DNA of 64,000 nucleotides from Eledone cirrhosa (lineage: Eukaryota), in contig CAXHJY010000447.1 of NCBI GenBank assembly GCA_964016885.1, positions 24,379-88,378 on the forward strand, read 5' to 3'. Shown here piece by piece: positions 29,249-49,994 of the stretch. Within the stretch, counting starts at the first letter, position 1, and each line of letters begins with the position of its first letter. The translations under genes and the position numbers were made by a program. The notes below the pieces were generated by a model. The model was not told the origin of the DNA and searched no databases. It saw only the letters and a program-made list of their open reading frames with translations.

Positions 29249-30155
29249 CATTATTTATGTAAGCGAACAGTACGTGATTTAGGAGTCGCAGAAACCCAAA
29301 TGCTGGATTTTACCAACTTTCCAGGGGTCCGGGTACATTTTTCAATCACATATATTTTTATTTGTTTGACCCGAATTACTTGATCGTTTTTTTTGGCTGT
29401 GCGGATGATTGTTTAACCATCGTCTCAGTGTGTTTGGCCTTTAACGTTTGATATAGCTCTGGTTCATCTGAATCATTGAGCACTTGCCACACATCTCGGA
29501 GGTTGTTTTTCGTTATTTCGTGGGCCGAAATGCGATTCTCGATAATTTATTTGTATTAATCTCCAGACTCTAGCTATTGATTAGTTAATTTTCTTGATTT
29601 TTTAGTTGATTCTATTGACTAATGAATAGCTTATGTTAACTTTAACCCTTCTGTTGAGAACTCTATTCGATTTGTGATGTTTTGCATTCTTGCAATAATA
29701 TACACAACTGAATTCATTCGCCTGATATAGGGTTGCCTCCCTTGCTGATCCCCACGTGGGGTCAGCAATAGTCAGTCCTTGTATTACTATTGAACTAAAA
29801 CCTGTTGAGTAAGCGACTTCCTTGTTCAATCATCTTACCAGAAGCCTAACATTATTTATGTAGGCGGACAGTACGTAATTTAGGAGTCGCAGAAACCCAA
29901 ATGCTGGATTTTACCAACCTTCCAGGGGTCCGGGTAAATTTTTCAATCACATATATTTTTATTGTTTGACCCGAATTACTTGATCGTTTTTTTGGCTGTG
30001 CGGATGATTGTTTAACCATCGTCTCAGTGTGTTTGGCCTTTAACGTTTGTTATAGCTCTATTTCATCTGAATCATTGAGCACTTGCCACACATCTCGGAG
30101 GTTGTTTTTCGTTATTTCGTGGGCCGAAATGCGATTCTCGATAATTTATTTGTAT
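29249..30155 (-). mobile_element. Non-coding ~600 bp unit with ~305 bp terminal direct repeats (family K, PLE-derived)
   Basis: 29249-29556 is repeated at 29850-30155; homologous to 49053-49994; vestigial PLE-like peptide RVLNRRVKVNISYS on the minus strand. Confidence 0.75.
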
Positions 30156-30666
30156 ATATATATATATATATATATATATATATATATATATATATATATA
30201 TATATATATATATATATATATATATGTATATATATATATGTATATATATATATATATATGTATATATATATATATATATATGTATATATATATGTATATA
30301 TATATATATATGTATATATATATATATATATATATATATATATATATATATATATATATATATATATATATATATATATATATATATATATACTTATATA
30401 TATATACTTATATATATATATATATATATATACATATATATATATATATATATATATATATATATACTTATATATATATATATATATATATATATATATA
30501 TATATATATATATATATATACATATATATATATATATACATATATATATATATATATATACACACACACACATATATATATATATATATATATATATATA
30601 TATATATATATATATATATATATATATATATATATATATATGTATGTATATATATGTATATATATA

Positions 30667-31405
30667 CCGAAAACGATAAATGTAATAGAATGAAACGAAA
30701 TTTTATTTCTCACTCTTAGTATGGCACTTACTTAAATGTGAGTATGTATTTATACGTACATACGTATATGTATACAGACGTACAGTAGTATGTATATATA
30801 TATACATACATGCACACATATATATATATGCACGTATCGGTTTACCGAACATTTATTATAATGCTCGGTTTGATTGTTTGTAAACAAATAGCCTGAATTA
30901 CTCCGTACAGTATTTTGGCAACCCCGTCACCTTTTTGTTCAACACTGACACAGGAACGATGTATGTCGTTTTCGGTGCGCCCAGCCGACTGAACTCACTC
31001 GATATGCAAATTAGGCTGCTCAGCTGTTAATATGCATAAGGAAAGTATATAATTTCAGACGTTCAACCATCTGGCAGGAAGGTATACGATGCTGACGATA
31101 GCTAATAAGCTTGAAACTAGTACATCGTTCCTGTGTCAGTGTTGAAGAAAAAGGTGACGAGGTTGCCTAAAAACTGTACGGCGTAATTCGGGCTGTTTGT
31201 TTGTTTACAAACAAACAAACCGAACATTATAATAAATGTTCGGTAAACCGATACGTGCATATATATATGTGTGCATGTATGTATATATATACATACTACT
31301 GTACGTCTGTATACATATATGTATGTACGTATACATACATACATACTTACATTTAAGTAAGTGCCATACTAAGAGTGAGAAATGAAATTTCGTTTCATTC
31401 TATTC
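30667..31405. mobile_element. Fold-back element (family B), ~280 bp arms
   Basis: 30684-30963 is the inverse of 31121-31404; the spacer contains the HHR 5' half; a second copy is at 45690-46213. Confidence 0.85.
31086..31128 (+). ncRNA. Minimal type I hammerhead ribozyme (family B)
   Basis: ACGATG-CTGACGA-tAGC-TAATAA-GCTt-GAAAC-TA-GTA|CATCGT; palindromic ACTAGT stem III. Confidence 0.88.
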
Positions 31406-32075
31406 TATATATATATATATATATGTATATATATATATATAAATATGTATATATATATATATGTATATATATATATATGTATATATATATATATATATGT
31501 ATATATATATATATATGTATATATATATATGTATATATATATATGTATATATATATATATATGTATATATATATATATATATGTATATATATATTTATAT
31601 ATGTATATATATATGTGTATATATATATATATATGTATATATATATATATATATATATATGTATATATATATTTATATATGTATATATATATGTGTATAT
31701 ATATATACATATATATATATATATATATATATATATACATATATATATATATGTATATATATATATATATATATATATATATGTATGTATATATATATAC
31801 ATATATATATATATACATATATATATATATATATATATATATATTTATATATATATATATATATATATGTATGTATATATATATGTATATGTATATATAT
31901 ATATATATATACATATATAAATATGTATATATATATGTATATATATATACATATATATATATATATATGTACATATATATATATATATACATATATATAT
32001 ATATACATATATATATATACATATATATATATATATATACATATATATATACATATACATATATATATACATACA

Positions 32076-32487
32076 GTATTTACGTATCGAGAAAGAGAAA
32101 AAAGGGGAGGATAGGTGATACATATAGTTATTTGCCAAGTAGCGTATGCCAAAGGTGCTCGATACTAGTGCCGGCAGTATTAAATATTCGAAGTGTTAAT
32201 ATTTAGTGGGCTAGAGAGTTAGCAGAGCGTAAGCTCGTGGGAAAGTAAAAAATCGGAGAATAGACCGTTAAAACATGTTTATTTAAAACAGCACCTACGT
32301 ACGTTTCGCCCAGTTGGGCTTCTCAAGGGCATAAATAATCACAAGTGTTCCTTATATTCCGAGCAATATAAGGAACACTTGTGATTATTTATGCCCTTGA
32401 GAAGCCCAGCTGGGCGAAACGTACGTAGGTGCTGTTTTAAATAAACATGTTTTAACGGTCTATTCTCCGATTTTTTACTTTCCCACG
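32076..32487. mobile_element. Fold-back element (family C), 123 bp arms, 6-nt loop, ~160 bp tail on the left
   Basis: 32236-32358 is the inverse of 32365-32487 (one mismatch seen); flanked by TA. Confidence 0.88.
32393..32432 (+). ncRNA. Hammerhead ribozyme with variant core UUGAGAA (U3:A8); mirror copy at 32291-32330(-)
   Basis: GCCC-TTGAGAA-GCCCA-GC-TGGGC-GAAAC-GTAC-GTA|GGTGC; stem I is short and bulged. Confidence 0.7.
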
Positions 32488-47895: not shown

Positions 47896-48122
47896 ATCTA
47901 CATATATATTTATATATATATATATATTTATACATATATATTTATATATATATATATTTATATATATATATATATATATATTTATACATATATATTTATG
48001 TACATATATTTATATATATATATATATATATATATATATATATATATATATATATATATATATATATATATATATATATATATATATATATATATATATA
48101 TATATATATATATATATTTATA

Positions 48123-48917
48123 TATTTAATACAATAACAGAGATAGTTTAAAGCTAAACTCTGACTGGTAACCATCTCACTCAACAAACATTAGGTTATA
48201 TTAAAATACAAACCCAATTTTAGTGTTTGGGTTGCTAACAATATGTATAATGTGGAAAAACCAGTTGTATTATTTTATGAGATATAATTAAAGTTAAAGT
48301 ATATCTCTCTTTCCAAACAATTGTTTCATTATAAGTCTTCTAAAAGTTTGGGAGAATGTTTCCAGTTTATGTAGAAGCTTAATATATATTCATGTAAGAA
48401 TATATTTAGGTGGGCACTTATAAATCATCAGTGGAAGCCCATTAAACATTGATATAAGAAAACAATTTCTTACCGCTGTCAAAATTCATGTCCGTAACGT
48501 TGCTCTCCCTCACGTCGAATGACCGCCAAATTTGATATTCCAGCAGTTTTTGACTGCGGAAGTATCATAGCGACACGAAGCGGGAAGGGGAGACAACCCA
48601 CGAAATGAGGAAAAAATATAATATACACGCGGGTTAATTAGTTTTTTTTGAAAACATTATCAATCCAACGTGTTTAAGAACTCAATTGCAAATAAAAAAA
48701 TAAATATATGCTTGTATAACTTACACACGCATATAGATATTTTCTTAGGCTAAATCAGAAGTTGTACTCGAATCAGAACCGCTTCACATAACCGCAGTAA
48801 ATGCAGAAAGTTATACTATAAAGGGCAAATGGGAATATAATTCTCCGGCCGAATTATTAAGAGTAAAATATAAAACACACGCGGGTTAATTAGTTATTTC
48901 AAAACCAATATTAATTT
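48123..48917 (-). mobile_element. Family J non-coding HHR element (truncated copy); HHR at 48311-48436(-)
   Basis: Minus strand TTCCA-CTGATGA-tTTATAAGT...ACTTATAAt-GAAAC-AATT-GTT|TGGAA; homologous to 50345-51140. Confidence 0.82.
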
Positions 48918-49052
48918 ATATATATATATTTATATATATATATATATATTTATATATATATATATTAATATATATATATATTTATATATATATATTAATA
49001 TATATATATATTTATATATATATATTAATATATATATATATATTTATATATA

Positions 49053-49994
49053 TGTAAGTCTTATATTTTTATATGAGCTGATAGATGACGGTTTAAGGAT
49101 TTACAGAAACCCAAGAAGCTAGATATTCCATCTCTCTAGTGGGTCCGGGTATGCATTTTACATTCATTTCATTTATTGATTTATTGATATTTATCTGAGT
49201 GTCCCGAATCTTCCATATCGAACTTATCGGTTATTTGGTTGATTGTAGACATATTCTACGTGTGACGGTATTTAACGATAGTTATAGCTCTAATTTATTT
49301 GAATTATAGAGCCCTCTGCCGCTCATCTCGAATTTTGTTTATCGTGAACTCGTGCGCCGATTTTTCGATACTCGATTATTCTACTATATTTAGCTCTAGA
49401 CTTAGCTATTGACCAGTTAATTTTATTGTTCATTTTTTGTCGATTCTATTAAATGATGAATAGCCCCTGTTTATTTTAACATGTCTATTGAGCACTCTTA
49501 TTCGATATGTGTTTTTGCCACACTTTTCCGAATATTTTTGCGGATATAAAGGTTATCTCCCTTGCTGAAATCCATGTGCGTATTTTTAGCCTGGGTCTTG
49601 TCTTTCCATCCATTCGGACGAAGCTCGTTGATGAAGTAACTCCAGTCCCCCGCTGTCTGTAAGTCTTATATTTTTATATGAGCTGATAGATGACGGTTTA
49701 AGGATTTACAGAAACCCAAGAAGCTAGATATTCCATCTCTCTAGTGGGTCCGGGTATGCATTTTACATTCATTTCATTTATTGATTTATTGATATTTATC
49801 TGAGTGTCCCGAATCTTCCATATCGAACTTATCGGTTATTTGGTTGATTGTAGACATATTCTACGTGTGACGGTATTTAACGATAGTTATAGCTCTAATT
49901 TATTTGAATTATAGAGCCCTCTGCCGCTCATCTCGAATTTTGTTTATCGTGAACTCGTGCGCCGATTTTTCGATACTCGATTATTCTACTATAT
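49053..49994 (-). mobile_element. Family K non-coding 605 bp unit with ~337 bp terminal direct repeats
   Basis: 49053-49389 is repeated at 49658-49994; TA-flanked; diverged homologue of 29249-30155. Confidence 0.78.

Follow-up and report, generated by a model that had tools for sequence, protein, structure and literature searches.

We analysed a 64,000-nt window of Eledone cirrhosa DNA (contig CAXHJY010000447.1, positions 24,379 to 88,378; coordinates below count from the first letter of this window) that carries two insertions of a repeat here called family K. K is likely a protein-free retrozyme of the kind lacking long terminal repeats (LTRs), with a predicted self-cleaving variant of the type I hammerhead ribozyme, that is copied into (TA)n tracts, probably by the enzyme of a Hydra-clade Penelope-like element (PLE). 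We are highly confident of its identity as a retrozyme; cleavage by its hammerhead in vivo is probable, judging from sequence patterns, and a circular template for its long arrays is marginally favoured. What carries this reading is directly visible in the DNA, namely the array layout, a 3′ end fixed just before a hairpin (hairpin B), a conserved core with covarying stems, and a pile-up of 5′ ends behind the predicted cut. The original prediction is supported in part: K is a structured retroelement that codes for no protein, is linked to Penelope and has RNA helices that covary.

Genomic layout of family K

The two window copies, K1 and K2, have the sizes and positions first proposed (29249–30155 and about 49053/58–49994) and are diverged, their units sharing 411 of 564 aligned letters. 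K1 is a 601-nt unit followed by a repeat of its own first ∼307 nt (298/306 aligned letters identical), and K2 a 605-nt unit followed by a repeat of its first ∼332 nt (332/332). Also present, as described earlier, are conserved blocks, an inner helix that covaries and the GCTC..GAGC hairpin. The window belongs to a 3.0-Gb animal genome, in which the motif GAAACCC-N22..45-GGGTCCGGGT has 5268 exact matches compared with three in a reversed control, far beyond chance; DNA searches for K returned 4628 and 1673 first-look candidates, and scores were computed for 39 and 40 of them, respectively. CCCGAAT, listed originally among the conserved blocks, is replaced in other subfamilies by CCCGTTT, CCCGCGT or CCCGCTT.

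The repeated ends had been described as LTR-like. Copies elsewhere are head-to-tail arrays in which the left end lies anywhere in the unit and the right end is fixed, and the fixed outer boundaries of an LTR element or LTR retrozyme are absent: any part of the unit can form the 5′ end, and loci differ in the number of copies they hold. The similar start of both window copies is a coincidence, and the “terminal repeat” is a partial tandem typical of PLEs. K monomers are non-coding, measure ∼570–650 nt and occur dispersed and in tandem, from fragments to at least ∼55 units; one K2-lineage array holds at least ∼55 monomers at ∼608-nt spacing (G000:C1:81709385-81743487). Among TA-flanked 3′ ends, 90 of 93 lie at one single site. 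This contrast between a fixed right and a variable left end identifies the + strand of K as the template strand. Dispersed, non-coding tandem monomers, each with a predicted type I hammerhead, are the arrangement of a non-LTR retrozyme. A sister lineage (loci L147–L149 and L298–L327; 2559 first-look candidates) has a ∼652-nt monomer with the same ribozyme core, a stem I of GCCUG/CAGGU and a microsatellite-like stretch inside the monomer.

The same 615-nt monomer fills two arrays 23 Mb apart (14/14 and 11/14 monomers identical), and arrays show array-wide haplotypes. Such homogeneity does not separate rolling-circle copying from later expansion of the DNA. It would also result from local expansion if single copies were retrotransposed and long arrays then grew at the DNA level by slippage or unequal crossing over, with no RNA circle, a route that has been proposed for retrozymes (10.64898/2026.07.22.740005). 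We consider this route possible though doubtful: arrays share the fixed 3′ end and the random 5′ end with single copies at many loci, and one monomer sequence recurs in two arrays at so great a distance. The alternative touches the array step only and is compatible with a working ribozyme. In the K2 arrays, the substitutions are too few to tell whether they include A-to-G editing scars (5 A>G, 5 T>C and 5 C>T of 31).

Part of K2 (49207–49493) was also found in contigs of run X4, which bears a second organism label; one of these contigs stops in TA at 49389, the same 3′ site as in K. A conserved-looking stretch at 29690–29770, 160–240 nt upstream of the cut, contains TTTTGCAT and a CACGTG hairpin and might hold an internal promoter.

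A variant type I hammerhead

The GAAAC..GUC motif had been read as resembling half a hammerhead that lacks CUGANGA, and as possibly a new ribozyme. The absence is literally true (a canonical CUGANGA partner gives six genome matches compared with five in the control), but a variant half, UUGAN(A/G)A, sits 80–87 nt upstream of GAAA, behind a large loop II. With this half in place a type I hammerhead fits, and the K ribozyme is a variant of that type, not a new class. The upstream block was exposed by applying the block logic of PMC10085705 to the subfamily alignment, and runs in the order of a strand pairing with the bases after GUC, UUGAN(A/G)A, one extra base, and a strand pairing with the bases before GAAA. 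It had been missed because each window insertion contains one copy only, at the far end of the unit; the first ribozyme copy of K1 lacks it because of 5′ truncation.

We tallied cores in 101 distinct segments chosen solely on their GAAAC and GUC blocks. The upstream core is found in 92 of these, nearly all at the spacing given above, comprising 67 UUGANAA (one a chance match in foreign flank), 15 UUGANGA, three CUGAGAA and seven single changes; none is CUGANGA. Genome-wide, the pattern with the U3-A8 variant core has 2576 matches compared with 18 in the control.

For structural analysis, 26 representatives were taken from 33 clusters by removing misaligned, rearranged, near-duplicate and unrelated ones and adding the window copies and L147. 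Unconstrained RNAalifold prediction places stems I, II and III around an unpaired core, in a three-helix junction open at stem I. Two-sided changes occur in five of six pairs of stem II and one of five of stem I; in stem II, 87.6% of cells pair, compared with 27–47% in slid controls, and its covariation score was reached by none of 500 shuffles, a control that ignores relatedness. Positions G2.1, U4, G5, A6, A9, C11.1, G12-A15.1, C15.2, G16.2, U16.1 and C17 are invariant in all 26, rows that were in part picked by motif, and positions 3 and 8 are U3-A8 in 19, U3.G8 in five and other in two. The type I core (Y3-U4-G5-A6-N7-R8-A9 with a 3-8 pair, G12-A13-A14, A15.1-U16.1 and H17) is present, as are the three helices in the order C-G-S, open at stem I. 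Loop II is ∼60 nt long and branched, with its own hairpin and some invariant bases, and stem III is extended. The cut is predicted to follow GUC by analogy with known hammerheads.

An unpaired A stands between C11.1 and G12 in 26/26 representatives, opposite A (22) or C (4) and never U, and stem II closes directly on G12 in none of them. Because of this A we file the K ribozyme as a variant hammerhead; an extra A fixed before the general base G12 is a natural variant of the core. Rfam returned no match for the K ribozyme, which means that thousands of animal hammerheads escape standard descriptors. The window copy of K1 has U8, and the resulting U3.U8 mismatch probably makes it inactive.

The predicted fold depends on where the RNA ends. 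For RNA that stops directly behind stem I, 10/26 representatives have the active fold as their minimum-energy structure, and in 17/26 it lies within 1.3 kcal of the minimum; when the downstream strand is added, these counts fall to 3/26 and 6/26. The downstream strand can pair with the 3′ strand of stem I in 92% of cells, but with zero two-sided changes. As a universal switch this decoy strand was rejected, there being no two-sided change and no such strand in the sister lineage. In the folding models, an off-switch acting after transcription is plausible for the main lineages only.

Other candidates for the missing partner were also rejected. Versions with a shorter loop II gave 15 matches compared with nine in the control (mostly K deletion copies), and three compared with two. 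CUGAUAGA or CGGACAG, ∼25 nt before GAAA, taken as a degenerate core, is part of the inner structure of loop II; its local pairing with the 3′ strand of stem II reaches 77%, and covariation in this pairing is not independent because the strand is shared with the true stem II. A type II or scrambled hammerhead was discarded on the lack of a downstream core half and the C-G-S block order. HDV-like ribozymes have a conserved J4/2 (CGAA) after P4 and a 7-bp P1. Reading CGAAT as J4/2 failed, as its letters vary between subfamilies and Rfam gave no match.

5′ ends behind the predicted cut

We sampled 5′ ends with a pattern ∼100 nt downstream of the ribozyme, taking matches on contig C1 in genome order. 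For K1, 966 matches were obtained; 98 of the first 100 listed fell into 94 regions, from which six array duplicates and one region extending beyond its locus were dropped. For the K2 lineage, with 2086 matches, the first 100 listed came from 41 loci, of which 40 were used. Within the matches listed, the stretch 0–19 nt behind the predicted cut holds 18 of 63 K1 ends, where 2.7 would be expected from the remainder of the monomer, and 11 of 40 K2-lineage ends (1.35 expected). A later K1 batch is a weaker replicate, with 4/24 ends in the 20 nt behind the cut (1.3 expected, p 0.04). The next 20 nt downstream have at least equal TA content and no peak. Within a separate, score-ranked set of nine junctions, one copy (L328) has its first base precisely at the cut, and its junction shows no microhomology.

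Roughly one in four of the K copies sampled begins just behind the predicted cut. The pile-up indicates that cut K RNA is likely a template and suggests, from the distribution of genomic ends, that cutting takes place in living cells. For the question whether PLE-type hammerheads cut in vivo, K provides a defined construct and a prediction. Two further loci (L195 and L334) contain junctions that connect a point in mid-monomer straight to the base at the predicted cut or next to it; jumps between templates where an RNA ends, or deletions in the DNA, could have produced them.

The 3′ end and the likely mobiliser

Hairpin B lies directly behind the fixed 3′ end and is predicted to be the start signal for reverse transcription. 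Its stem shows a compensatory change, TCTC/GAGA in K1 and GCTC/GAGC in K2. Hairpin A did not serve as a 3′ end in any of the first 100 listed of 2086 matches. The suggestion that K contains a structure recognised by reverse transcriptase fits these GCTC..GAGC-type hairpins and does not fit the GAAAC..GUC motif.

The window also contains copies of a Hydra-clade PLE (41731–45597 and 52500–58473), in inverted arrangement and with a canonical hammerhead core, CTGATGA, at about 45416. This element is abundant (71 657 first-look candidates), with full-length open reading frames (ORFs) of 745–748 aa elsewhere (L177–L182), and the RWR, DKT and CxCX5C signatures described for the Hydra clade are present in its ∼745-aa ORF. 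The element has two fixed ends, each followed by a hairpin of the form RCTC..TTGAGY-GCTTT. K carries this motif twice, as hairpin A and as hairpin B; hairpin B sits in the same register, and the K profile consensus CTGTTGAGAGCTTTAT matches the PLE at 15/16 letters. A published Hydra consensus ends in a similar hairpin, and another PLE initiates internally at a stem-loop (PMC11167929). A fixed 3′ end, truncated 5′ ends and a (TA)n target are the properties of a non-autonomous partner of a Hydra-clade PLE, and K has all three. From these sequence features, Hydra-clade PLEs are the likely mobiliser of K.

Proposed cycle and its weighing

In the cycle we propose, K arrays would be transcribed, and the ribozyme would fold and cut during transcription, before the downstream strand captures stem I. 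A Penelope-type reverse transcriptase-endonuclease would nick (TA)n and start copying inside K RNA at hairpin B. On cut linear RNA the enzyme would run off at the cut, leaving short copies that start 0–19 nt behind it and are mostly joined via the first UA, while on ligated circles or uncut multimers it would read through and produce arrays. A more detailed version is tentative, and we hold it to be improbable in its entirety: an animal hammerhead of ∼135 nt, in which an A that is always present at the base of stem II faces A or C and does not pair, would cut in the germ line, the decoy strand would switch it off post-transcriptionally, and the cut linear RNA and the ligated circle would both be templates for the Hydra-clade enzyme, with the copies recording both routes. 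If true, the genomic copies of K would report, at the scale of a population, on how a hammerhead cleaves during a Penelope-type life cycle.

Several observations weigh against the retrozyme reading or parts of it. The covariation counts are uncorrected for relatedness, and K1 in the window is not the only copy with a departure at position 8, the K2 lineage often having the U3.G8 wobble. The A before G12 is absent from the published PLE consensus in its available form and, read as a 10.1.11.1 mismatch, could lower activity (PMC3088659). Around 70% of copies that reach the cut site read through it, as is expected of circles or uncut multimers. According to PMC11167929, a PLE could insert in vitro when its hammerhead did not cleave, and none of the RNA reads stopped at the hammerhead site. 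PLE insertions typically have a second start site and an inverted arm; K has neither, as its 3′ distribution indicates. The K profile finds no DNA homology to the window Hydra family beyond the short start hairpin, a word-indexed protein search for longer relatives returned nothing, and no autonomous or ORF-bearing element with the K ribozyme was found among the loci examined; the link between K and the Hydra PLE rests on a short hairpin, the target and the layout.

A related alternative keeps the hammerhead fold and gives up its activity: cutting would have been lost, the structure would be a platform for binding or folding with the Penelope protein, and the pile-up would be a polymerase stall at stem I. 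Such a stall explains equally well why the earliest start in the three unbiased samples is at +4, with positions +0 to +3 unused. A smaller K1 peak (six ends) lies beside a 13-bp hairpin, so structure alone can stop copying. The unpaired A before G12 in every representative points the same way, as does the weak activity of PLE hammerheads in vitro, where by the available account eight of nine Xenopus dimers failed to cleave. We nevertheless judge a mere platform unlikely: the catalytic positions are all invariant across lineages that are ∼70% alike, position 8 is A or G opposite U3 in 24/26, one copy starts exactly at the scissile bond, and equally TA-rich stretches downstream show no peak.

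Minus-strand peptides

The original prediction explained K as an internally deleted PLE with vestiges of the PLE protein on its minus strand. The peptides SIFNRHTIKLTYSS and TTWNIVSRGIPF quoted for it stem from another, autonomous-type element (43339–44013 and 56378–57055); minus-strand counterparts do exist in K, and their match is marginal. Against a profile of 150 Hydra-type proteins, with two types of shuffle (150 each), one K1 peptide scores 7.5 bits (11.3 without composition correction), above shuffle maxima of 7.1 and 8.2, respectively, and the K2 peptide 2.3 bits; only two of 20 representatives, both of the K1 lineage, exceed the shuffle maximum, and 18/20 stay within the shuffle range. 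The peptides are read from the strand opposite to the template and extend over both arms of hairpin B; in the autonomous element, the corresponding hairpin does not code for protein.

The deleted-PLE origin is therefore not established, its signal being confined to one lineage, antisense and over an RNA hairpin, and in combination with a half-hammerhead or new ribozyme class it is very improbable, given the complete hammerhead core. An inverted scrap of ORF inside the insertion of hairpin B is possible, if on the doubtful side.

Coordinates and neighbouring elements

Table 1. Features of K1 and K2 in window coordinates; ribozyme parts and cut positions are predicted.
Feature	Position	Strand	Details
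K1 insertion	29249..30155	+	5′-truncated partial tandem, 1.5 monomers of 601 nt; 3′ end in (TA)n
K1 first ribozyme copy	29282..29334	+	truncated; GAAA block and cleavage-site block only
K1 hairpin A	29456..29481	+	GCTC..GAGC; repeated at 30055-30080; resembles Hydra-clade start hairpin
K1 hairpin B	29553..29666	+	TCTC/GAGA stem with ∼85-nt insertion; directly behind fixed 3′ end
K1 block C	29800..29821	+	stem I 5′ strand 29800-04, variant core half 29805-29811, extra A 29812, stem II 5′ strand 29813-21
K1 loop II	29822..29882	+	large, branched; inner hairpin 29842-29865
K1 stem II 3′ strand and GAAA	29883..29898	+	stem II 3′ strand 29883-90, unpaired A 29891, G12-A13-A14-A15.1 29892-95, then stem III 5′ strand
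K1 stem III and cut	29904..29935	+	stem III inner helix 29904-25, GUC 29928-30, predicted cut 29930/29931, stem I 3′ strand 29931-35
K1 downstream strand	29968..29973	+	can pair with stem I 3′ strand; possible off-switch
K2 insertion	49058..49994	+	5′-truncated partial tandem, 1.5 monomers of 605 nt; (TA)n on both sides
K2 hairpin A	49287-49312 and 49892-49917	+	
K2 hairpin B	49386..49501	+	GCTC/GAGC; behind fixed 3′ end
K2 hammerhead, complete; 5′ part	49623..49755	+	stem I 5′ strand 49623-27, variant core half 49628-49634 (U3.G8 wobble), extra A 49635
K2 hammerhead, stem II and GAAA	within 49623..49755	+	stem II 49636-43 with 49702-09, unpaired A 49710, GAAA 49711-14
K2 hammerhead, cut	within 49623..49755	+	GUC 49748-50, predicted cut 49750/49751, stem I 3′ strand 49751-55

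Other repeat families in the window carry canonical type I hammerhead motifs, at 11179, 31092, 36259, 37924 and 38589 on the + strand and at 46050 and 48431 on the − strand. The left end of K1 adjoins the inverted end of another abundant repeat (29141–29250), which finishes in a 44-nt palindrome; this repeat end occurs at no fewer than a dozen other loci and beside K copies in L009 and L155. K2 is flanked by two minus-strand copies of another non-coding family (48132–48911 and 50353–51411; 93% alike), and in the first of these the hammerhead at 48431 is canonical with a long stem II.

An intact 1106-aa ORF of a non-LTR retrotransposon spans 59249–62569 and encodes an AP endonuclease and a reverse transcriptase, with a PHD-like finger inserted after the reverse transcriptase domain. 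On the − strand, 37031–38023 is a fragment of another GIY-YIG PLE (weak Pfam GIY-YIG match), adjoining a hammerhead-bearing direct repeat of 445 nt.

Comparison with known systems

Among the systems closest to K are metazoan non-LTR retrozymes (PMC7229834; 10.64898/2026.07.22.740005). In the available descriptions these, too, form tandem arrays that are dispersed and non-coding, every monomer has its type I hammerhead, and mobilisation by PLEs is proposed. Their usual monomer measures ∼300 nt, about half that of K. K further differs from them in its U3-A8 core, its ∼60-nt branched loop II, a long stem III able to fold as a monomer, and the A before G12. Descriptors built on canonical or minimal cores would miss the K hammerhead.

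The U3-A8 core itself is known and active in vitro (PMC3088659), and the variant occurs in the Cercyon PLEs of Schistosoma mansoni (PMC4209133). The minimal hammerheads of PLEs (PMC4209133) share with K the U3-A8 pair, an extra nucleotide (H) after A9, G10.1-C11.1 and a 5-bp stem I. In those ribozymes helix II is a short hairpin that closes directly on GAAA and helix III is minimal, with activity depending on dimers; in K, by contrast, an additional A precedes G12, loop II branches and helix III is extended. The fresher points of the present analysis are this fixed A and the count of 5′ ends that cluster at the cut. A literature search, incomplete in its coverage of papers and supplements, found no description of the A before G12, and a literature listing gave none of truncation at the cut; both are weak negatives.

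Hydra-clade PLEs (PMC8557442) resemble K in their (TA)n target, fixed 3′ and truncated 5′ ends, partial tandems and a GCTC..GAGC-type hairpin behind the 3′ end. Hydra elements are reported there with canonical hammerheads, and K is unlike them in having no protein, one 3′ site in the copies examined, rarely an inverted arm, and a non-canonical hammerhead. Type-SGC hammerheads (PMC10085705), by their available description, have core blocks that are separated in the sequence and are missed by standard searches, as in K; unlike them, K retains the ordinary C-G-S order of type I, with no crossing stems.

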